DNA from: a virus
Reading direction: 5' to 3' (one strand)
Length of the DNA: 64,000 bases
Virus record (IMG/VR): IMGVR_UViG_3300025913_000026
Span: 20,698 to 84,697 of that record
Shown: positions 1,068 through 64,000 of the stretch, piece after piece
How positions within the stretch are numbered: the first letter of the stretch is position 1
Layout of the letters: each line of letters begins with the position of its first letter
The notes under the pieces: generated by a model
The model's database searches: none
What the model saw: the letters and a program-made list of their open reading frames with translations, nothing else
Told to the model about the DNA's origin: nothing
Translations under genes and position numbers: made by a program

Positions 1068-1598
1068 TTAAAAAAAGAAGGATGAGTTATTTTTCAAATA
1101 AAGACCTCTATTTATAGCCGCCTGTGCTGAAAATTGCTGACCATCATTAGTCGATTGTTCTGCACAACTAATATCAACTATTAATTGAAGCATACTATTA
1201 TACCAGTTTGCATCTCTTAATATGTTTGGATTGTCAGATAAAGTACTTATTTGACCAGACAGAAATGTATATAAATAATTCAAAAACGTTTCAACTGACT
1301 GGGCCGAATAAACCGACCCTGGTTGAGGATTATTACTTAACCACACCACATTTACTAATAATGAATAATCTGTATTTAATACTCCGTTAATAGTAATAGA
1401 TGTTCCCGCAGAAAATGGGAAATCAATATATGATGTGATAGTTCCCGTAGGTACAAGGGTATTCCCATCAACTAAATAAACATAAATTCTTCGGCCAGAA
1501 AACGTCCCTTGATTTTCGCTAGAATAACTAGAAGTATCATTGACAATAAAACTAGTTATATCAGATGTTTGCGTTATTGAAAATTGACCAGTAAACAT
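1068..1598 (-). CDS. Putative virion/tail protein
   Basis: 176 aa, S/T/N-rich, structural operon. Confidence 0.6.
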   Translation of the reverse strand: MFTGQFSITQTSDITSFIVNDTSSYSSENQGTFSGRRIYVYLVDGNTLVPTGTITSYIDFPFSAGTSITINGVLNTDYSLLVNVVWLSNNPQPGSVYSAQSVETFLNYLYTFLSGQISTLSDNPNILRDANWYNSMLQLIVDISCAEQSTNDGQQFSAQAAINRGLYLKNNSSFFF

Positions 1599-2275
1599 TA
1601 GTTTTTATATTTAAATATGAATCCTTTTGTTTGTTTTTGGTCGCCACATAATACCGAATAAATATATCTTTTATCAATACTCATTTCACTAGCCGCTTCA
1701 TGAACGGAAACATATTCTTTTATTATATTTAAATTCAAATCATACATTGTGACTGGTCTTCTCATTTTATTCCTAGCCTCTCTTCTTGCCATAATTGCTT
1801 TTGGGGTAGATTTAATCCCCAATGTATATTTTTTACCAGTATTTGCTTTCTTTATACTTTGAATATGCTCTTCAGATAGCTTTCTCCCCTTTCCTGCATT
1901 AGATATTTTAATTCTCGCCTCTGCTGTTATTGTCATCCCCTTACTACCTATCCCCCCATCAGTTAGATTCAGTCCATTCTTTTCTGGCCATTTATTATAA
2001 TTACACATATTTGTCCTAATCCAAAATATTTCCTTCCCCTCTGCATATAAATGTGTGTCCTCAAATTCCTCAATTACTTCTATTGAATGGTTGTTAAACC
2101 CATATGTAACCAAAGAATTATATAGTAATCTCTGCTTCTTTACAGAACTATTTAATGTTTTATATGCTTTAAATCGGCGCTGAAAATAAGCGGTACAACC
2201 TACATATACTTGGCCTATGGGATTGGTAATTTTATAGATAGTCCATTCTTTCATTTCAGAAGAAGGCAAACTCAT
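1598..2275 (-). CDS. GIY-YIG homing endonuclease with NUMOD3/NUMOD1-type DNA-binding motifs
   Basis: IYKITNP..VYVG motif, LNLTDGG, KISNAGKGRKLSEEH, C-terminal YVSVHEAA..GFIFKY. Confidence 0.85.
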   Translation of the reverse strand: MSLPSSEMKEWTIYKITNPIGQVYVGCTAYFQRRFKAYKTLNSSVKKQRLLYNSLVTYGFNNHSIEVIEEFEDTHLYAEGKEIFWIRTNMCNYNKWPEKNGLNLTDGGIGSKGMTITAEARIKISNAGKGRKLSEEHIQSIKKANTGKKYTLGIKSTPKAIMARREARNKMRRPVTMYDLNLNIIKEYVSVHEAASEMSIDKRYIYSVLCGDQKQTKGFIFKYKN

Positions 2276-2307
2276 ACAAATCAGGTATTTATTTAATAAA
2301 AATACAT

Positions 2308-3018
2308 TTATTTTTTAACTTTTACCATCACTTTTGGAGCACTTGATGGGGATGTTTGCCCATAAGCTGGGACAGTATTTATCAATTCAGTAATTCTTGG
2401 ATTTTTACTAATCACCTCATCACGTAATTGCTTAACAATTTTCCCATAAGCTGGATTTTTCTTTAAATTTAATGGGTTGGCATGGGTAACTGGTATCCCA
2501 TAATAGCTTTCATTTACATGCGGCCCTGCTGTTTGACGAGGGGTAAGAATCCCAAGACCATTATATGTCTGAATATCATATTCTTCCCCATGAGGAAGAA
2601 CCCCCTTTTTTCTTAATTCTTGTGCATATGCTAATTTCTCCTTAAGGGCTTTCGCTAAAATGTTAGCATTTTTATCACGCTCTGTGGGCAATCCTTGATC
2701 TTCAAATGTCCCCCAAGCTGATCCATAATTAGGGTCTAATTGCCCCATATTAGTCTCTTGTAATGCAATCGCTAAGGCAGTGTGTGGACTTACCCCTTGG
2801 GCCTTTGCATGTGCAATGATGGCTTTTGCATCTTCTTCATTTATTTTTATTCCTTTCCCTCCTATATTTTTAAAAGGAGTACCTGTTGCCGGATTAATTT
2901 GTCTCTTATCCTCTAATTGGATCAATCGCGTGGCATCTGTCGGCTTATACAAGGTAATAGGATCGTCCGGGCCTGTTTCGGACATAGAATTTAAATTCTG
3001 AACTCTTACTTTAGCCAT
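2308..3018 (-). CDS. Lysozyme/SLT-like muralytic protein, probably virion-associated
   Basis: AKAQGVSPHTALAIALQET (catalytic Glu-like) and later TYNG motif. Confidence 0.55.
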   Translation of the reverse strand: MAKVRVQNLNSMSETGPDDPITLYKPTDATRLIQLEDKRQINPATGTPFKNIGGKGIKINEEDAKAIIAHAKAQGVSPHTALAIALQETNMGQLDPNYGSAWGTFEDQGLPTERDKNANILAKALKEKLAYAQELRKKGVLPHGEEYDIQTYNGLGILTPRQTAGPHVNESYYGIPVTHANPLNLKKNPAYGKIVKQLRDEVISKNPRITELINTVPAYGQTSPSSAPKVMVKVKK

Positions 3019-56411: not shown

Positions 56412-56765
56412 GACGCGCCCCACCCCCCCCCACAAGTTATCACCTCTTCCAAATAAATCTATCTCCCAATCCCCCCCATCCCCCAATCCAACCCACCACA
56501 CTCTAACCACAAAGCAATCTAACCTAAACGCCAATTAGTCAAAGCCATAGACCATCACAACCACAACAGCGCAGATTACATAACTACCTGGAAAGCAAAA
56601 TGGGAAACGCCGCCCACCCCATTACAGATAAACGTTTGCCCATTGACCGACCATCGATCTAAACGTAGGGGGTGTACTCAGTGAGTGTAAATCGAGGGGT
56701 ACCCAGTTTTATTAGCGAGGGTGGGGTGGTTTACGGGAAAGTACCTAGATTTGTGGGTACTTGGT
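56412..56765. other. Non-coding C-rich to G-rich switch region (candidate origin or packaging site)
   Basis: C-runs 56418-56620, then G-runs 56668-56757, near the switch from minus- to plus-strand genes. Confidence 0.4.
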
Positions 56766-56768
56766 ATT

Positions 56769-57612
56769 CAATGTCGTTGAATTAAGAATAAATAATATAT
56801 TATGAGTAATAAAGAAGAGCATTCACAACAATATGAAAGATTACCAGAAGATGATAAAACAGTGGCCGATACAATATTGGGATATTTGAATGGTTGTAAT
56901 AATAAAAAAGCAGAGCGTATATTGTATGCTCTGCTTGAAGAAATTAGTTATCATTCTACTATTCACAGTGAGTGAAAATCTGTATTTTCTTTAACAGCTT
57001 TTTTCAAATCTCTTATTTCTTCTTTTAAATCTTTAATCTCTCTTTTTAATTGATTAAGGCTATCCATTAACTCGTAAATAATTCTATCATCAATATTTGA
57101 CATAGACAAAGTTTTTGTTTTGTTATAATTGTTTATAATTCATGGATGGCGGCTTTTTAGGGCTTTTCTTTCTAGCTTCTTTTCTTCCTGGTCTTACTAT
57201 TTCTACTGTTGCTCTTGCTATTTTATCAAAAGCATCTATGGCTGAAGAAATGGCTTTATGGATAAACATTTTTGGCGCAGATTCCTTTACCATTGACAGG
57301 GCATTTGTTCTGTTTACCTTGTAATTGTGCTTAGTGGTCTTTTCTGCCTCCTGTTCTTTTCTTAGTTGTTCATCTATTGGAAATGCTAAAACAGCAGTAG
57401 TGGTCATAATGAATACCTTTGCATAGAAATCCTGTTTTACAGCCAGTGAAGTTTTTCCAGACCATGCTTCTAGTTGTAGGCGGCATTTATATAGCTTATA
57501 TGCTTCTTCTATATTCCAACGCTTTTCGTATAAGGACACGAACTCATTATATGAAACTTGCTTTTGATCCATTAAGGAGGTTATCAGAATTTCAATACCT
57601 CCACCGTTATCA
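56769..57612 (-). mobile_element. IS4-family remnant (5'-truncated transposase with one IR-like end)
   Basis: ORF 57123-57572 has LYEKRWNIEEAYKLYK..QDFYAK..VRPGR; frame extends only a short way upstream; CAATGTCGTTGAATTAAG at 56769 resembles an IS4 end; no partner IR seen. Confidence 0.65.
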
Positions 57613-57642
57613 AAAAATATCGAATAACTGAAATTAGAATAG

Positions 57643-58092
57643 TTGGGTTATATTTATGGCCTTAATGCAGGAACCGGCAAAGCGGTTTATTCAATTCGTA
57701 TGTTTACTTCATTTCTTTTTAACAAGCTATCTCATCTACGCCAATTTTATTCAACCGAAACAGAATTTACACAGCACTTATTGAGCGGGGAGGTTAAGGT
57801 TTCTATCCCAGATTTAATTACATTCCAGGAAGAATACGAAAAACAAAAACCAATCAGTAATTCATCCGGATGTATTTTGCCTTCTCAGTTTCAAATAGGA
57901 GATAAGGCATCATTGAAATTGACTGGATTATCTTCAAAAGGTGATGGGTCGTTAGCTACCGTAGATTGTATAGCCGAAATATTAACGGTTCATTTCTATG
58001 AAGGAAAAGTGAAATATGATTTAGAACTCCCATTAGACTTTGGGAACACTAGAGTTTATAATATTGATTCTGTTTTTGTTTCGCCTGTATAG
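57643..58092 (+). CDS. Hypothetical protein (start uncertain)
   Basis: LPSQFQIGD..VHF..GKVKYDL..RVYNIDS; terminator follows. Confidence 0.55.
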   Translation: MGYIYGLNAGTGKAVYSIRMFTSFLFNKLSHLRQFYSTETEFTQHLLSGEVKVSIPDLITFQEEYEKQKPISNSSGCILPSQFQIGDKASLKLTGLSSKGDGSLATVDCIAEILTVHFYEGKVKYDLELPLDFGNTRVYNIDSVFVSPV

Positions 58093-58113
58093 TTTTTGCC
58101 TTCATTTATTCCT

Positions 58114-58147
58114 AAGCCCAGATTCTTAATTGAATCTTGGGCTTTTT
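58114..58147 (+). terminator. Intrinsic terminator
   Basis: AAGCCCAGATTC..GAATCTTGGGCTTTTT. Confidence 0.65.
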
Positions 58148-58201
58148 GATTTTTATTTCAAAAATATTTGGCAGTGTAATAAAAAGTAGTAATTTAGCTA
58201 C

Positions 58202-58396
58202 ATGAAAGGAAGCGATGAAATAATGGAAACATCTCCTGTGAGAATAGATAACGGAGTATTAGATATAGTTAGGAATATTAAGGCAATTACTGGATGCCCA
58301 ATTCAGCGTTTCGTTGAAGAGGCTATTGCTCTAAAGATTAGTAAGCTGCCTAAAAGCGTAAAAGATAAACTGGGACTTAAAGAAAAAACTAAATAA
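58202..58396 (+). CDS. Ribbon-helix-helix-like protein
   Basis: PVRID..VL..V..I...TG..IQRFVEEAI; TTTG..TAATTTAG promoter-like sequence upstream. Confidence 0.55.
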   Translation: MKGSDEIMETSPVRIDNGVLDIVRNIKAITGCPIQRFVEEAIALKISKLPKSVKDKLGLKEKTK

Positions 58397-58474
58397 TTAG
58401 CTATGCCACCTACATCTAGGATTAGTGTTGCAAAAAAGGGTGCTATCTGAAACTAGTAATCAGATCATAGCTAA
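58397..58474 (+). ncRNA. Structured RNA unit 1
   Basis: Closing stem TTAGCTATG/CATAGCTAA, inner ATCTGA/TCAGAT. Confidence 0.45.
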
Positions 58475-58489
58475 GTTCTTTGAATTTTA

Positions 58490-58586
58490 TTTATTGGTTG
58501 CTAAAAGCCGCGGGATTCCTAACGGAATTATTGTCTAACATTCGACCAGCTAAGGATGGCGGTTTAATAGTGGTGTAACCAATAAA
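58490..58586 (+). ncRNA. Structured RNA unit 2
   Basis: Closing stem TTTATTGGTTGC/GTAACCAATAAA, inner AAGCCGC/GCGGTTT and ATTCC/GGAAT. Confidence 0.5.
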
Positions 58587-58592
58587 CTTCTT

Positions 58593-58786
58593 TCTACTGT
58601 GTGATGTGGCTGGAATAACGCTGATGCAGATAAGTTCCGATAGGCAGCACTCGGGTAGTGGTAACATTATCGACTACATCTTCGGAGATATGCAAGGGTG
58701 CATAGTGGATTTAAAATCCATGAAATAGGCGGCCCTCTGTCAACTGGAACATAAGCAGGTAACCAATCCTGCCATCATATAGTAGA
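58593..58786 (+). ncRNA. Expanded tRNA-Leu(UAA)-like RNA (about 190 nt)
   Basis: 14-bp closing stem, D-like GCTG/CAGC, GTGGA-TTTAAAA-TCCAT arm, T-like GCAGG-TAACCAAT-CCTGC, plus inserted hairpins. Confidence 0.55.
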
Positions 58787-58919
58787 TACTTACTTAAGGT
58801 CGGGCAAATGGAATCCGGCGGTACACGTCCCATCATAAGACCCGATCATTTTTTTAACAGGATACAGCAAGAACTCAAAAGGCCACATCTATTCTATTCA
58901 TGGTTAAGATGTGGCACAT

Positions 58920-58992
58920 AGCTACATAGACCAACGGTAGAGTCAACAGACTTAAAATCTGTACAGTCCGGGTTCAAATCCCGGTGTAGCTA
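58920..58992 (+). tRNA. tRNA-Leu(TAA), short variable loop, CCA not encoded
   Basis: AGCTACA/TGTAGCT acceptor, ACAGA-CTTAAAA-TCTGT anticodon arm, CCGGG-TTCAAAT-CCCGG T arm. Confidence 0.9.
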
Positions 58993-59030
58993 CAGGATAA
59001 GGTTTAATGGTTAATGGTATTTGATAATAC

Positions 59031-59059
59031 GGGGCCAATTTCTACTGGCCCCTTCTTTT
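59031..59059 (+). terminator. Hairpin after tRNA
   Basis: GGGGCCA..TGGCCCC followed by TTCTTTT. Confidence 0.5.
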
Positions 59060-59071
59060 AAACTCCCACAA

Positions 59072-59428
59072 ATGAAAACAGTATATAACAACCCAGAAAC
59101 AGTAGATGCAATTAAATTAATGGTATTAGGTTGTATGCTGGCCGATTACGGTGCTAGGTTAATAGTTGATGATACCAAGCAAAATCTTAAATACCGTGTG
59201 AAGTGTGTGCTGAACGCAGTTAAAAATGTAGAATTGTATTTCATAAACCACAATAACACAACCGAAGAACATCGTAAGGCATTCAAACGCAGCTTTCTTA
59301 AAAACGAAACAGTACTGCTTGCTGATCTTAATTTAATGTGCTGGGAAATACAGGATGAAGGATTGGAACAAATAATAAGTGCAATCAGGCAAGTACTGGA
59401 TACGCCAGAAGAAATTAATAACCAATAA
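59072..59428 (+). CDS. Hypothetical protein (start revised to ATG 59072)
   Basis: ATG just after the hairpin. Confidence 0.55.
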   Translation: MKTVYNNPETVDAIKLMVLGCMLADYGARLIVDDTKQNLKYRVKCVLNAVKNVELYFINHNNTTEEHRKAFKRSFLKNETVLLADLNLMCWEIQDEGLEQIISAIRQVLDTPEEINNQ

Positions 59429-59441
59429 ATACAAATCAATT

Positions 59442-59694
59442 ATGTCAGAAGTTCCTCAGAAGGATACGAGAGAATTAACATTTGGCGAAAAAGCCGTAGG
59501 CTTAACTTTCAATCCAGGTGGTCATGAAAAGGTGAATGCTATCAAGCAGGCTCAGGCTATGTATATTGATATGCTTAATCAGTTTTCGTGATGAAACGAC
59601 TAATGGTGAAGTAAAACGCCAACTCTCCGTGGCTATTACAGAAGCACAAACAAGTCAAATGTGGGCTGTAAAAGCCGTGACTTGGCAATACTAA
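59442..59694 (+). CDS. Acb2/Tad1-like helical-hairpin protein, 1-nt frameshift in T4 at about 59583
   Basis: Corrected: MSEVPQKDTRELTFGEKAVGLTFNPGG..IDMLNQFRDETTNGEVKRQLSVAITEAQTSQMWAVKAVTWQY. Confidence 0.6.
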
Positions 59695-59799
59695 CCCAAC
59701 CAATATTTAATAACCAAGCCCCTTATAAGTAGTTCATAAATTAAAACCAGCTCCCTTTATGATATATGGACTATGGAAAGGGGCTTAAATTTTAATTAA

Positions 59800-60033
59800 A
59801 TGGCAAAAACAAAAGAGATATCATTTACTTGTGAAGAAATTACTTCAAAGCCGGATGGATATAGAAAAATGAAATTGATAGTGGATTCGCCAGATATAGA
59901 TGAGCTTTTAACCGAAATTGATGATGAAGATTTAATAGGTCATCTTCAAGGTAATTTCAATCCAGAAGATGTATTTACTGAAAAAGATCTCAAAAAATGG
60001 GCTGAAGAAAACGGGTACTTAAAAATACAATAA
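59800..60033 (+). CDS. Hypothetical acidic protein
   Basis: Ends KWAEENGY. Confidence 0.55.
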   Translation: MAKTKEISFTCEEITSKPDGYRKMKLIVDSPDIDELLTEIDDEDLIGHLQGNFNPEDVFTEKDLKKWAEENGYLKIQ

Positions 60034-60041
60034 ATAATTAT

Positions 60042-60299
60042 ATGCAAGGAACAGTAAAATATAGCGAAGAGTTTATGACCATGACAGGTCTAAAGCGCTG
60101 GGTGGGAATTGAACTCCCCTTTGAAGATACAATCCATAGCCCAATTGATAAATTAGAAGAAGCCATGTCTAAAGTACAGTCATTTGCTGCTCGTTCAGGA
60201 ATTATTCATCCTCCTGTTACTAATGCAAATTATGGTTATCCCAATCTTCTAAACCCAGACGAACAACTACCTGTAATTCAAGTAAGAGAACAATACTAA
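60042..60299 (+). CDS. Hypothetical protein
   Basis: ORF in operon. Confidence 0.5.
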   Translation: MQGTVKYSEEFMTMTGLKRWVGIELPFEDTIHSPIDKLEEAMSKVQSFAARSGIIHPPVTNANYGYPNLLNPDEQLPVIQVREQY

Positions 60300-60311
60300 A
60301 ACAATAAATAC

Positions 60312-60500
60312 ATGGAATGGATACCAGTAAGCGAAAGAAATCCAGAACATAGCGGCAAATATTTGACATATGCCTTGGACTATCATAAGGTAGGTCACGC
60401 ATGGTATAACACAAAGTACCGGCTTGGATGGGAAGATGACAAAGAAGAATGGCTTCCCGTGACTCATTGGTGTGAACTTCCTGAACCACCTAAACAATAA
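60312..60500 (+). CDS. DUF551 family protein
   Basis: MEWIPVSERNPE..VTHWCELPEPP. Confidence 0.85.
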   Translation: MEWIPVSERNPEHSGKYLTYALDYHKVGHAWYNTKYRLGWEDDKEEWLPVTHWCELPEPPKQ

Positions 60501-60510
60501 AACAACATAT

Positions 60511-60717
60511 ATGACAGACAGAATAAAAGGGCTTACAGTTATCCTTGAAAAGGATGTTCGAGAAGATGATTTAGAGGTATTCATTCAGGCAATATCGCTT
60601 ATGAAGGGAGTTCAGCAGGTTATTCCCCGAGAAGCCAATCATGAAGATATTATTCAGGAAATGAGAACTAAATCCGACATGAAGTCTAAAATATATGAGT
60701 TTATAAAAAACCTATAA
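60511..60717 (+). CDS. Hypothetical protein (start revised)
   Basis: MTDRIKGLTVILEKDVREDD..AISLMKGV. Confidence 0.6.
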   Translation: MTDRIKGLTVILEKDVREDDLEVFIQAISLMKGVQQVIPREANHEDIIQEMRTKSDMKSKIYEFIKNL

Positions 60718-61008
60718 CAAATGACTAAAGAAACAATCTTAGGCGATAAACGAGCCCGGCCAAAGCATTTGAAGGAATATTACGGGCCATGTTATCAATT
60801 GCAAGAACTGATGAAGAAAACCAAAAACAGGACAAAATAGATTCAATGTGTTAAAGAATGGGACGCAGGCGCAGACTACTTTATGTATACTGGGATAACG
60901 TTTATCAGCGGCAATATTCCACTACAACCTTTCCGGTAATGCAGGATAAACATTCAAAAGGCCGCTACAAAATACTTTGGTGCTGGAAACTAAAATACCC
61001 TTGGAGAA

Positions 61009-61341
61009 ATGATAAATAAAGAGCCTGGAAACGAACATTTATGGAGACAATTCATCCGGCTGGGGGAAATGATGGGAGATGGTTTGCATCATGAGGAGCC
61101 GTGGATTGCAAAGGAATACAAGCGCTTGATGATGATCTTGTGCCCACCAACAGTAGAAGAAAAGGCCGCGATTAGAGAACATAAAAACAAATCCATTAAC
61201 GCTCAAATGGCTGAATTATTGAAGGATAGGCATTGTTCATGTGGTGGCAGTATAAAACAATCAAGATCAGGTAGTAAAACCGCATATTGTGATAGATGTA
61301 GAGCGAAATTTAAAGCAAAACCTAAAAAACAATCAGAATAA
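61009..61341 (+). CDS. Zn-ribbon hypothetical protein
   Basis: LGEMMGDGLHHE..CSCGG..CDRC. Confidence 0.65.
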   Translation: MINKEPGNEHLWRQFIRLGEMMGDGLHHEEPWIAKEYKRLMMILCPPTVEEKAAIREHKNKSINAQMAELLKDRHCSCGGSIKQSRSGSKTAYCDRCRAKFKAKPKKQSE

Positions 61342-61607
61342 ATGGATAAACCAGAAGAACTAATAACAGATGAACAGATAGAGAAGGCCTGGGGGAATGG
61401 GAACTTTGGAGAGTATCTGAATAACAACAAGCGAGAACTAATCAACAATACAGTCCTGAAATGCGCAAGTGGATTAAGGACTGGCGCTACGGCTACAAGC
61501 ATATGTGCAGAACTTGGGCTTACAGTAAGCAAAAAAATAAATGGAAGCTAACTGAGCAAGGCCAGTGGTATTTATATTGCGTTTATTCACAGGGTAAAAG
61601 TTATTAA
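61342..61607 (+). CDS. Hypothetical protein with probable frameshift in A7 at about 61531
   Basis: Alternative frame continues KNKWKLTEQGQWYLYCVYSQGKSY* up to the next gene. Confidence 0.5.
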
Positions 61608-61609
61608 TT

Positions 61610-61876
61610 ATGGACATGCAGGAAATATTAAATAAGTGGTATTTAACGCCAAAATACTTCTCAAATGACCACATTACTGAGCCGTTGGTTTTTGATTGCA
61701 TGGTTGATTATGCGCGACAAACTTCTCTTCATTTCGCTAAATGGGTCAATGAAAACTATCTCTATCACCAAGATGGACTATGGTATAAAAGTGAAATCCC
61801 TGAATGGGGATCCAAAACGGACGAAGAAGTCTGGGCGCTTTATTTAAATAGACATAATAATTCAAATCCTTGGTAA
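61610..61876 (+). CDS. Hypothetical protein
   Basis: ORF in operon. Confidence 0.55.
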   Translation: MDMQEILNKWYLTPKYFSNDHITEPLVFDCMVDYARQTSLHFAKWVNENYLYHQDGLWYKSEIPEWGSKTDEEVWALYLNRHNNSNPW

Positions 61877-61940
61877 ATAACAATTTATATATTGTATTGA
61901 ACATGGGAATAGACTTCAGTAATATAAATCAAAGCATAAA

Positions 61941-62285
61941 ATGAGCAATCACAACAGAAGATTATTGGATAAGATTCGGTATAACCGACAGATGGATCAG
62001 CTTTTATCATTAATACGGAAATCTATTATAGCCTCTGAAAAATATACTATCTATGAAGTAGACATGAGCTATACTAGTTCCTCGTTTTACGAGTTTAGAG
62101 TATACCGACAAGGAGAAACATCTGAAATATTAATGTGGCAAACGGTACAAATAGGCACAGATGAGTTTGACGATCAATTCAAAGCGCTAGATAATGTCCT
62201 TAACAACTTGCTTACTCATGGTGTAATGCCAGACATATACCCAATGTACATTTCTGAAGAAAAGGAGGGTGAAGATGGTCGATAA
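61941..62285 (+). CDS. Hypothetical protein
   Basis: ORF in operon. Confidence 0.5.
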   Translation: MSNHNRRLLDKIRYNRQMDQLLSLIRKSIIASEKYTIYEVDMSYTSSSFYEFRVYRQGETSEILMWQTVQIGTDEFDDQFKALDNVLNNLLTHGVMPDIYPMYISEEKEGEDGR

Positions 62286-63162
62286 AGTGATAAGCTTCGA
62301 TAGTTTCAAGGTTAGGTGTTCCCAGATTGTAGCTGCCTTATCAAATAGCCGGTCAAATCCTATTCTAACAGAGAATCAGGAAGCTAGGATAAAGGAATTG
62401 AACGATAAGCTGCAAGAAAAAGGCAAAATAACCGAAAAACAGCAGGCTGAATTAGCCGAATTACAAGTAAAGGAAGAAAATAGCAAGAAAGTAGTCCTCT
62501 CAGATACCTATATAGCATATCTAATGGCTGAATATGCCTGGATAACCGAAGGCATGATAGCCGTAAACAAGGAATCTATGGAGTTATTGGCTATTCAGAA
62601 GGGCAGAGAAGGCGAAAATGAGGCTGTAACGCTTCTAATGAGAGTTGATAAGCAACCATACCAAATCCACAAAGAAAGGATTTATAACGATTATCTGAGT
62701 GGAGAGATAGATATTTACCTGGGGGAGCATGTTTATGCTGCAACCAATATAACTGACATAAAAAATTCATGGGATTATCCTACGTTTCTAAAGAAGATCA
62801 ATACAGGGCTGGAAAATGGTCAGAAAGAGCAGGTCCAAGGATACTGTGACATTACCGGAGCCGGGGAAGGATATATTGCCAACACTTTAATCAGCAATCC
62901 AGAGCACATTATAGAGGAAATGAGATGGCGTGTGACTAAAAAGATCGGTGCTACCACTCCAGAATCTCCTGAAATGCTAAAAGAATGGCCTAAATGGGAA
63001 CGATCAATGAGGTTCGATCACATTCCACCAAATAAACGTGTGCATAAGATCAAAGTAGAGCCGTTCACGGAGTTTGAGAAACAAAAGCTGTATGATAGGG
63101 TAAAATTTGGCCGGGATTGGTTGAATCAATTCCACGAAAAGTATCAGGTATTGAATAAATAA
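62269..63162 (+). CDS. YqaJ/lambda-exonuclease-like PD-(D/E)xK nuclease
   Basis: FKVRCS..KG.E.E..SGEID..DIKNSWD..QVQGY. Confidence 0.75.
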   Translation: MKMVDKVISFDSFKVRCSQIVAALSNSRSNPILTENQEARIKELNDKLQEKGKITEKQQAELAELQVKEENSKKVVLSDTYIAYLMAEYAWITEGMIAVNKESMELLAIQKGREGENEAVTLLMRVDKQPYQIHKERIYNDYLSGEIDIYLGEHVYAATNITDIKNSWDYPTFLKKINTGLENGQKEQVQGYCDITGAGEGYIANTLISNPEHIIEEMRWRVTKKIGATTPESPEMLKEWPKWERSMRFDHIPPNKRVHKIKVEPFTEFEKQKLYDRVKFGRDWLNQFHEKYQVLNK

Positions 63163-63182
63163 TTAAAATAAGTACTTAAATT

Positions 63183-63374
63183 ATGATAAGTAATGAGCAT
63201 GATGGGAAGAATCCGCAAATCAGTACCACGGTAAGCTGGGGATTGTATCAAGAAATAGATGAAATGGCTAAGAAAAATGACAGAACTTTGTCAAACATGG
63301 CTGCTATTTTATTGGAACGAGCGGTAAAAGAATCTAAAAGAAAGCGCACTAATGCAAAAGAAAATAATACTTGA
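63183..63374 (+). CDS. Ribbon-helix-helix (Arc/CopG-like) protein
   Basis: ISTTV..LYQEIDEMAKKNDRTLSNMAAILLERAV. Confidence 0.7.
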   Translation: MISNEHDGKNPQISTTVSWGLYQEIDEMAKKNDRTLSNMAAILLERAVKESKRKRTNAKENNT

Positions 63375-63810
63375 AATAACCCCGCAGACATATGTTCGGG
63401 CGACGCAGAATGATAGAATATTCTTCAGAATACCAAGAGATAAATTACGCCCAGCCAGTTTGAAAAGACTGGAAAGATTGGAGCAGTATAATAAATATAA
63501 AATAGCTGTATTAGCATTAGCCAAGCAGCAACATTTCATGCTTCCAGAGCAAGGGGCTGAAATAATATTCTATATCCCGGTGTCAAAAAGCTGGAAAAAA
63601 TATCAAAAAGAAGCCCAACATATGAAGCTTCACAGAAATAAGCCGGACTTGTCGAACTTACTAAAGGCCCTGGAAGATGGGCTTATGACCGAAGATAAAG
63701 GGATAGCTCACTATGCAGGACTTGCAAAGATTTGGATCAATGAACCTACGGGGAGAATAGAGATAAATATCCATACTCCAAGTCTTAGTTCCATGGATGT
63801 TTTATCGTAG
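63352..63810 (+). CDS. rusA: RusA-family Holliday junction resolvase
   Basis: FYIPVSKSW..H..KPDLSNLLKALEDGL..D..I...KIW..GRIEI. Confidence 0.8.
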   Translation: MQKKIILEITPQTYVRATQNDRIFFRIPRDKLRPASLKRLERLEQYNKYKIAVLALAKQQHFMLPEQGAEIIFYIPVSKSWKKYQKEAQHMKLHRNKPDLSNLLKALEDGLMTEDKGIAHYAGLAKIWINEPTGRIEINIHTPSLSSMDVLS

Positions 63811-63850
63811 TTTTTCGAAGTGAGTACCGTCATCGGTGAGTATTAGACAC

Positions 63851-64000
63851 TCATATGTAACAAATCAGTTACATTATTGATATAACTAATTGTTAATCAA
63901 AATGTTGATAAAGAAACTTACAAGCAAAGCTTGAAAACTTTATCAACATTTTGATTAACAATTAGTTATATCAATAATGTAACTGATTTGTTACATATGA
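63851..64000. repeat. Perfect inverted repeat of at least 63 bp with a 24-nt imperfect tip, cut by the window edge
   Basis: 63851-63913 is the exact reverse complement of 63938-64000. Confidence 0.95.

Follow-up and report, generated by a model that had tools for sequence, protein, structure and literature searches.

A 194-nt structured element, probably descended from tRNA-Leu(UAA), in the terminal repeats of a soil phage

The locus described here raises the question of what a phage might gain from, or merely carry as, a stretch of DNA that looks like a greatly enlarged tRNA-Leu(UAA) and that lies immediately upstream of a genuine tRNA with the same anticodon. The DNA that was analyzed (hereafter, the window) comprises the rightmost 64 kb of the 84,697-bp IMG/VR virus record IMGVR_UViG_3300025913_000026. 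Given that genes for a portal, a terminase and virion proteins are present, the record represents a tailed phage; its provenance is rhizosphere and soil samples. The record has perfect inverted terminal repeats of 7,541 bp, with the inner edge near window position 56459. Because the element lies within the repeat, each genome contains two identical copies of it, the second being in the left terminal repeat. The probable hosts are Chitinophagaceae: a 21-nt word just after the tRNA(UAA) is present in over 120 copies across Chitinophagaceae genomes, among them Niastella, Puia, Terrimonas and Chitinophaga, and its abundance there points to this family. The presence of a true tRNA(UAA) is accounted for by codon usage, in that UUA makes up 43% of the leucine codons of the phage, compared with 17% in host loci. 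No integrase gene was found in the phage, and a reading of the stretch as an attP site is thus unlikely. When the ten neighboring proteins were searched against Pfam, RusA was the only match, and the neighbors gave no clue to the role of the element.

The element is part of an ORF-poor island in which several modules follow one another, as listed below in window coordinates.

58397-59071 (675 nt): ORF-poor RNA island, flanked by small plus-strand genes
58398-58474 (77 nt), plus strand: E1, a stem-closed module
58474-58484, plus strand: the word AGTTCTTTGAA, between E1 and E2
58490-58586 (97 nt), plus strand: E2, a stem-closed module
58593-58786 (194 nt), plus strand: E3, the whole element, stem-closed and multi-hairpin, probably derived from tRNA-Leu
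58798-58856, plus strand: a hairpin and then 7 consecutive U, terminator-like, between the element and the tRNA
58882-58915: a further hairpin
58920-58993 (74 nt), plus strand: tRNA(UAA), functional-looking, with a short variable arm (Rfam tRNA, 62.2 bits)
about 58994-59058, plus strand: a module resembling a host small-RNA family, AGGAUAAGGUUUAAUGGUUAAUGGUAUUUGA followed by a terminator hairpin

ORFs within the stretch reach 58 aa and look random by eye. The Bacteroidota promoter motif TAnnTTTG was not found within 57900-59100, and a consensus terminator scan did not call the hairpin and 7 U at 58798-58856. The last module opens 1 nt past the tRNA(UAA) with a conserved word of 32 nt, such that a phage tRNA is fused here to a copy of a small-RNA family that is widespread in Chitinophagaceae and absent from Rfam. 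Neither the element nor this small-RNA word was found described in the literature. The closing stem of E2 is kept in the sister phage G003. As separate observations on the island, the word AGTTCTTTGAA, when considered as a possible boxA, was found 25 to 51 times per host genome, which is too frequent for rRNA operons alone, and the pair AACCAAT/ATTGGTT occurs 6 times in the 1.9 kb around the element, compared with 24 times in 64 kb.

Within the element, the following parts were delineated.

58593-58606, plus strand: 5' strand of the closing helix, whose inner 7 bp occupy the position of an acceptor stem; mean pair probability 0.92
58607-58622, plus strand: UG linker and UGGC(U)GGAAU...CGC, a weak local hairpin; an outer D-arm-like copy, with likeness at the level of motifs only
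58647-58701, plus strand: possible three-way domain, predicted from one sequence (model at -59.0 kcal/mol)
58649-58719, plus strand: core, aligning with the acceptor 5' strand, D arm and anticodon arm of tRNA-Leu(UAA), with insertions of 1, 16 and 12 nt
58705-58721, plus strand: anticodon-arm copy GUGGA-UUUAAAA-UCCAU, with UAA at 58712-58714
58755-58772, plus strand: T-like arm GCAGG-UAACCAAU-CCUGC, abutting the 3' closing strand
58773-58786, plus strand: 3' side of the closing helix, in which the natural variant T58780C converts a G.U pair to G-C

An initial sequence-only reading had described this stretch as a tRNA-Leu(UAA) mimic with an acceptor-like stem extended to 14 bp. Such a stem is indeed present: 58593-58606 pairs contiguously with 58773-58786 through 12 Watson-Crick and 2 G.U pairs. 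By itself a stem of this length is unremarkable, since 22 stems with 14 or more pairs and a span of no more than 260 nt were counted in the window. The fold as a whole was more informative. On the plus strand, the minimum free energy (MFE) of the element was -61.6 kcal/mol, corresponding to a z of -2.93 relative to dinucleotide shuffles (3 of 200 were as good), compared with a z of -1.16 for the minus strand; when folding energy was adjusted for composition, the element ranked 27th among 3192 genome windows (top 1%). The stretch thus folds better than chance. The thermodynamic ensemble leaves the internal fold ambiguous, with a five-arm model at -59.0 kcal/mol lying close to the MFE.

The internal arms were then compared with those proposed earlier. 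The UG linker is found at 58607-58608, and 58607-58622 displays the U8-G9-G10-Y11-G12-G13-A14-A15 signature of tRNA-Leu, with G18G19 absent. The D-like stem GCUG/CAGC of the sequence-only reading did not hold up: two of its bases also belong to the GCACUC strand, which means that the two cannot both be fully formed, and forcing it cost about 10 kcal/mol (-50.3 or -51.3 kcal/mol, compared with the MFE), the five-arm model being one that lacks it. An extra multibranch domain can be retained as a possible structure, in which a GCACUC/GGGUGC helix (58647-58652 with 58696-58701) would enclose a GUAA-capped and a UCGG-capped hairpin; these caps are of the GNRA and UNCG types. The anticodon-type arm is present as described, with U33, UAA and A37, and the same anticodon recurs in the real tRNA(UAA), 134 nt downstream of the element. 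Among 48 anticodon-arm-like hairpins on the plus strand, UAA occurs in only two, those of the element and of the true tRNA, which are separated by 241 nt. There may also be a variable-arm hairpin (GGCGG-CCCU-CUGUC). For the proposed T-like arm, a hairpin does lie directly before the 3' strand, but its loop has 8 nt and no UUC motif. Its stem (GCAGG...CCUG) is the T stem of the host tRNA-Leu(CAA); real tRNAs with this stem have the loop UUCGAAU, compared with the non-canonical loop UAACCAAU of the element, and the pattern GCAGGT-N-AATCCTG-N-CATC matched mostly true tRNAs in IMG/VR.

To what extent the element is kin to a tRNA was assessed against the 87-nt class II tRNA-Leu(UAA) of Chitinophagaceae, for example that of Niastella caeni. 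The core at 58649-58719 is colinear with positions 1-41 of this tRNA, 34 of the 41 positions being matched, with a score of 26.5 under strict scoring. In the alignment, ACUCGGGUAGUGGUAAC lies opposite the host ACCCGGGUGGUGG-AAC and is followed by the 16-nt insertion; UCGGAGAUAUGCA lies opposite UGGUAGACACGCA and is followed by the 12-nt insertion; and GGAUUUAAAAUC lies opposite GGACUUAAAAUC. Dinucleotide shuffles scored 9.8 +/- 3.5 (1 of 2000 was as good), and 3402 other genome windows scored 8.1 +/- 3.6 (2 were as good). When all 55 distinct tRNAs of Niastella caeni were used, tRNA-Leu(UAA) was the top match and tRNA-Leu(CAG) the second, at 19.4; when the core alone was compared with the maximum over these 55 tRNAs, 1 of 200 shuffles reached the score. 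Moreover, the motif UGGYGGAA is confined, among the 55 tRNAs, to tRNA-Leu(UAA/CAA). Because the colinear match is significant and is best for tRNA-Leu(UAA), we consider it likely, as far as sequence comparison goes, that a class II tRNA-Leu(UAA) of the kind found in the probable hosts gave rise to the element. The similarity is confined to the core. The 3' half of the element gave no alignment to the host tRNA-Leu(UAA), its outer 5' and 3' parts scored at background, and E1, E2 and the downstream hairpins were likewise at background for tRNA similarity in the same shuffle test. Accordingly, of the outer frame of acceptor, D and T arms that had been proposed, a likeness of motifs stands, but no significance in the shuffle test. 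A partial duplication of the 5' part of the tRNA within the element is nonetheless plausible.

Relative to the parent tRNA, the added bases pair with strands whose original partners are gone. GCACUC, once the 5' side of the acceptor, has AGGGUGC from the 12-nt insertion as its partner. The 16-nt insertion is paired at both ends: its beginning with the former U8/D-stem strand, giving the GUAA-capped hairpin, and its end with the old D loop and the 3' side of the stem, giving the UCGG-capped hairpin. Furthermore, the host counterpart of the anticodon arm is CAGGA-CUUAAAA-UCCUG, and relative to it the anticodon stem has its outermost two pairs altered on both sides with pairing kept. This combination suggests selection for a compact RNA, for which one sequence is no proof.

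Could such an RNA still function as a tRNA, or does it belong to another known family? Rfam was searched at gathering thresholds and at E up to 10 with the window and with 211-nt pieces of it, and only the true tRNA was found; no known family, tRNA included, matched the element. For the tRNA clan (RF00005, gathering threshold 29 bits), 58585-58795 gave no match, including at E up to 10. Searches for tmRNA, RNase P RNA, group I intron, Y RNA, ROOL and GOLLD also gave no Rfam match; YrlA (RF02553) gave none at E up to 1, and the phage has no TROVE/Rsr gene. The earlier statement that this is not a tmRNA was borne out by default ARAGORN and by Rfam, neither of which found one. Relaxed ARAGORN settings produced intron-containing tRNA calls, which were judged spurious, and a permuted tmRNA, judged spurious as well in that it reuses the true tRNA and has an implausible 'tag'. 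With regard to individual arms, the anticodon arm is that of a tRNA, with a 5-bp stem, a 7-nt loop, U33 and a purine at 37. The T arm departs from the 7-nt UUCRANY loop of tRNAs, having 8 nt (UAACCAAU). At the acceptor, the helix runs for 14 bp, the discriminator position 58780 pairs with 58599, and there is no CCA; A73 and a free acceptor end are missing, as is GG from the outer D-like loop. The region contains no CCCGAGU-type partner for the inner acceptor strand. Because the element lacks a free acceptor end, A73 and a proper T loop, it would be neither charged nor used in decoding. Taken together, these computational data indicate that the stretch is a real structured region, apparently derived from tRNA-Leu(UAA) and apparently non-decoding.

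Homologues of the element were sought widely. A blastn search of INPHARED returned only tRNA-Leu matches, all to the true tRNA. Eleven related IMG/VR records, obtained through the terminase (49-88% identity) and neighboring proteins, did not yield the element, whether searched with BLAST or with a covariance model (R1) built from the one sequence, the filters of which were switched on or off. Words taken from the element and the tRNA had no exact match in IMG/VR, and a scan with the framed E2 pattern found G003 only. In a metagenome scan, one 3.2-kb contig of the same strain was recovered, whose non-coding region is identical except for T58780C; this variant was also seen in two soil runs, and the DNA runs were otherwise near-identical to the element. 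All runs holding the stretch are DNA runs, with no RNA run listed. Among 401 Chitinophagaceae genomes, only short matches at chance level were obtained. Since the only sequences recovered that preserve the arms come from near-identical copies of this phage, a new class of non-coding RNA, one of the options raised by the sequence-only reading, cannot be claimed. The element is known from one phage lineage, and its neighborhood is very plastic.

Given these findings, our preferred account begins with a host-type tRNA-Leu(UAA) gene that would have been swollen to 194 nt by insertions and probably also by partial duplication of its 5' part. The inserted bases would pair with the orphaned tRNA strands, giving a compact RNA closed by the 14-bp helix. 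Transcription would proceed on the plus strand within the RNA island, from both terminal repeats, as in the stable-RNA/tRNA cluster of phage T5, and the element would be released as a stem-closed RNA. Its anticodon arm could then be offered to a host factor, such as an anticodon nuclease or an enzyme that modifies the anticodon loop, and the pool of tRNA-Leu(UAA), on which this UUA-rich phage depends, would be spared. We place the probability of this whole account, ancestry together with the inferred role as a non-decoding look-alike of tRNA-Leu(UAA), at roughly one in three; we know of no tRNA-Leu(UAA)-specific nuclease in Bacteroidota. The sequence-only reading had likewise raised a possible decoy, for anticodon nucleases or a synthetase. 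A more specific version, which we regard as doubtful, holds that the element is a purpose-built decoy that cannot be charged, is expressed early from both repeats and soaks up an anticodon-loop enzyme, decoding being left to the structurally different 74-nt phage tRNA(UAA).

Nearly as likely as the mimic is a drifting relic. According to this explanation, a captured host-type tRNA-Leu(UAA), redundant beside the 74-nt tRNA(UAA), is decaying and gaining insertions, and any transcript would have no role. The lack of conservation past one phage strain would be expected of such a relic, as would the defective T loop and acceptor end, an outer frame that is not significantly tRNA-like, and the presence of different, partly degenerate tRNA-like pieces at the same place in sister phages. 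Survival of the anticodon arm is also compatible with modest neutral divergence after a recent capture. However, decay does not readily predict a folding energy in the top 1% of the genome that is specific to one strand, nor three inserted segments that are each paired with an orphaned tRNA strand, nor an intact anticodon arm whose outer two pairs have changed on both sides and still pair. The neighboring modules are stem-closed too, with the closing stem of E2 conserved in G003, and phage genomes seldom keep 675 nt of junk, let alone twice.

A further explanation, which we find clearly less likely, keeps a working structured RNA and moves its function to the added parts, for example to 58647-58701, with the tRNA pieces supplying folding, stability or processing signals. 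Frames with 40- to 91-nt inserts in the phages L040, L043 and L034 and a 223-nt frame in L265 would be natural parallels, as would T5 RNA1, and the presence of GNRA- and UNCG-type caps is also in its favor. Nevertheless, the anticodon arm of the element has been kept rather than replaced, the domain consists mostly of old D-arm sequence and complements to it, and neither a homologue nor an Rfam motif match was found.

That the stretch is a DNA feature or a chance fold (inverted repeats bound by a protein, a MITE-like insertion, or origin or packaging signals) is improbable. Its location within the terminal repeat, the local density of AACCAAT/ATTGGTT (6 of the 24 copies of the 64 kb falling in 1.9 kb) and the commonness of 14-pair stems would suit this explanation. 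Yet both non-Watson-Crick closing pairs are G.U on the plus strand and the two strands fold asymmetrically; additional copies are absent from the genome and the hosts, and there is no clear target-site duplication; and the significant colinearity with tRNA-Leu requires an origin from an RNA gene. Least credible is a precursor spliced or trimmed to a working class II tRNA-Leu(UAA), as the sequence-only reading had also suggested, or a tmRNA-like molecule, for although the anticodon arm is canonical, a variable-arm hairpin is possible and relaxed ARAGORN proposes a permuted tmRNA, that call reuses the true tRNA with an implausible 'tag', the inner acceptor strand has no CCCGAGU-type partner, position 73 is paired, the anticodon loop is uninterrupted, group I intron (Intron_gpI), tRNA and tmRNA models gave no match at E up to 10, and the sites of insertion, the D loop and position 26, are ones at which bacterial splicing is not known.

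If the mimic account is correct in assigning a function, the element would provide a concrete case of tRNA mimicry by a DNA phage, and if the decoy version were true, it would be a counter-defence that works through RNA and differs from the nuclease-insensitive phage tRNAs already known. The tRNA-like 'stable RNAs', such as RNA1, RNAI and RNAIII of T5, are long-established members of phage tRNA clusters. The present element would be an extreme example from a Bacteroidota phage, and one whose parent tRNA can be named on statistical grounds as a host-type tRNA-Leu(UAA); the part that survives is the anticodon arm, in a phage in which UUA is the codon for 43% of leucines. More broadly, stem-closed cassettes are the units that make up the non-coding RNA islands of this phage group, large inserts in tRNA frames recur in soil phages, and phages fuse tRNAs to copies of a small-RNA family that is widespread in Chitinophagaceae. 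As the element was seen in a single lineage, the claim made here stays modest.

Compared with known RNAs, the element shares with the host tRNA-Leu(UAA) the acceptor 5' strand, U8, a D arm with GG, and GGA-YUUAAAA-UCC. Unlike that tRNA, it has three insertions in the matched half and falls below every Rfam tRNA threshold. Bacterial Y RNAs (YrlA) carry a tRNA-like domain on a long terminal stem, and the element likewise has tRNA-like parts on a long stem made by its 5' and 3' ends; its closing helix differs in lacking the conserved bulged helix.

Closer in lineage is the sister phage G003, whose terminase is 85% identical. Its syntenic place holds an ORF-free array of about 1.4 kb that ends in the same small-RNA word and a terminator, and that contains several stem-closed modules, tRNA-like pieces, a counterpart of E2, and GC hairpins that recur with AAGTTCTTTAAA after them. 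In G003, the ends of the element's covariance model aligned weakly with a tRNA-like gene that is degenerate (12.2 bits, E about 0.08 over 37 kb). Genes with a tRNA frame were also found in other soil phages, their lengths being 151 + 59 nt in L043, 108 nt in L040, 153 nt in L034, 69 nt in G003 and 223 nt in L265, the last of which was recognized by its frame alone. Like the element, these genes have a tRNA-derived frame with large extra sequence or with the anticodon arm missing; the inserts of 40-91 nt in L040, L043 and L034 interrupt the anticodon arm, take its place or lie within the variable region, and several of the genes directly precede the same small-RNA word. The differences are that all except L265 pass the Rfam tRNA threshold (30.6-39 bits) and have canonical T loops, whereas the element does neither, and that in them the anticodon arm or variable region is replaced or split by the insert, whereas the anticodon arm of the element is intact.

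Phage T5 (GenBank AY543070) provides a further comparison. Its annotation lists RNA1, a 144-nt 'tRNA-like stable RNA', together with RNAI and RNAIII, 'stable RNA with unknown functions', and the three are arranged head to tail ahead of tRNA-His. RNA1 scored 32.7 against the host tRNA-Leu(CAA). It keeps a D-arm-like segment with GG, a T loop of 7 nt (UUCAACU) and a terminal stem, with its extra sequence lying between the D and T arms. Unlike RNA1, the element keeps its anticodon arm, has a defective T-like loop of 8 nt and a closing helix of 14 bp, and seems to carry two copies of its 5' part; the two RNAs aligned with a score of 15.2, which is at background level, and showed no similarity by covariance model. 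In arrangement, however, the two loci are alike. Both have a non-coding island beside a tRNA gene that includes one oversized relative of tRNA-Leu, and RNAIII has a 12-bp closing stem, just as the modules near the element are stem-closed. On these features of organization, the T5 cluster is the closest known arrangement to the island in which the element resides.

Immediately 3′ of the phage tRNA(UAA), the RNA island carries a sequence that recurs widely among the probable hosts:

58994-59058 of the window, and loci L036-L045 and L051-L130: small-RNA-like word followed by a terminator

Chitinophagaceae genomes contain more than 120 copies of the word, AGGATAAGGTTTAATGGTTAA, with several per genome, and it was also present in 10 IMG/VR phage contigs. 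In the hosts, a Bacteroidota TAnnTTTG promoter box lies upstream of the copies, and they are followed by TGGTWTTTGATTAGKG, then a GC-rich hairpin and then a U run; no constant gene was found 3′ of these host copies. The family built on this word is absent from Rfam, and its members look like copies of a small-RNA gene of about 80 nt. When sequencing depth in soil runs was examined, the 32-mer reached 75-311, compared with about 3 for the phage. The word begins 0-1 nt past a tRNA or tRNA-like gene in the window as well as at the phage loci L038, L040, and L043, and phages therefore appear to fuse it to tRNAs.

Departures from the ordinary tRNA architecture were also found in other soil phages:

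L043 1171-1321 and 2031-2089, L040 1573-1680, L034 1501-1653, and L265 ~490-716: altered tRNA frames

In all five frames (two of them in L043), the acceptor, D, and T arms are canonical, and the large changes lie elsewhere. The anticodon arm of one is replaced by a 91-nt insert, and in two others inserts of 40 nt and about 80 nt interrupt the anticodon loop and the variable region, respectively; the 59-nt frame at L043 2031-2089 is without any anticodon arm, and the 223-nt frame of L265 includes about 150 nt of additional hairpins. Separately, the cmscan alignment of the G007 tRNA (L025 1501-1576; 37.7 bits) showed an anticodon loop 2 bases longer than that of the model, and the small-RNA word starts 14 nt 3′ of this tRNA.

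The sister phage G003 (IMGVR_UViG_3300044706_000059) contains a longer array:

L019 ~1470-2940, minus strand: ORF-free array of about 1.4 kb

A GC hairpin plus AAGTTCTTTAAA occurs three times within it, alongside several stem-closed modules. The array also includes a 69-nt tRNA-like gene (33.4 bits) that lacks an anticodon stem, and a small module resembling a cloverleaf, with the loop CUCAUAA.

Two short words occur repeatedly. AGTTCTTTRAA (window 58474-58484) occurs 25-51 times per Niastella-type genome, versus 8-17 times for the reversed control (genomes G012-G016), and the phage copies are preceded by terminator-like hairpins; it may be a boxA-like or promoter element. AACCAAT/ATTGGTT has 6 sites within 1.9 kb (57848-59704), compared with 24 across the whole window, and these include both strands of the closing stem of E2, a module 5′ of the 194-nt tRNA-Leu(UAA)-derived element, as well as the T-like loop of that element.

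The flanking and terminal sequences comprise:

59072-59428: 118-aa gene, directly 3′ of the RNA island
56459-64000: inverted terminal repeat
63851-64000: end inverted repeat

Another contig of the window phage's strain (L035) differs from the window by 1 base over 3.2 kb, except in the 118-aa gene, where 87 of 357 positions (24%) differ and there is a 3-nt indel. This gene is a hypervariable allele that has been swapped. The inverted terminal repeats of the IMG/VR record are perfect over 7,541 bp; each record end consists of a perfect inverted repeat of 63 nt around a 24-nt loop, and a RusA gene (63352-63810) lies just inside the end inverted repeat. The ends may be hairpin telomeres, may reflect an intermediate of fold-back replication, or may have arisen as an artefact during assembly.

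Finally, the phage tRNA(UAA) (58920-58993) is 74 nt long with a short variable arm, whereas the host-family tRNA-Leu(UAA) (L332 1456-1542) is an 87-nt class II tRNA; the loop CUUAAAA is common to both.
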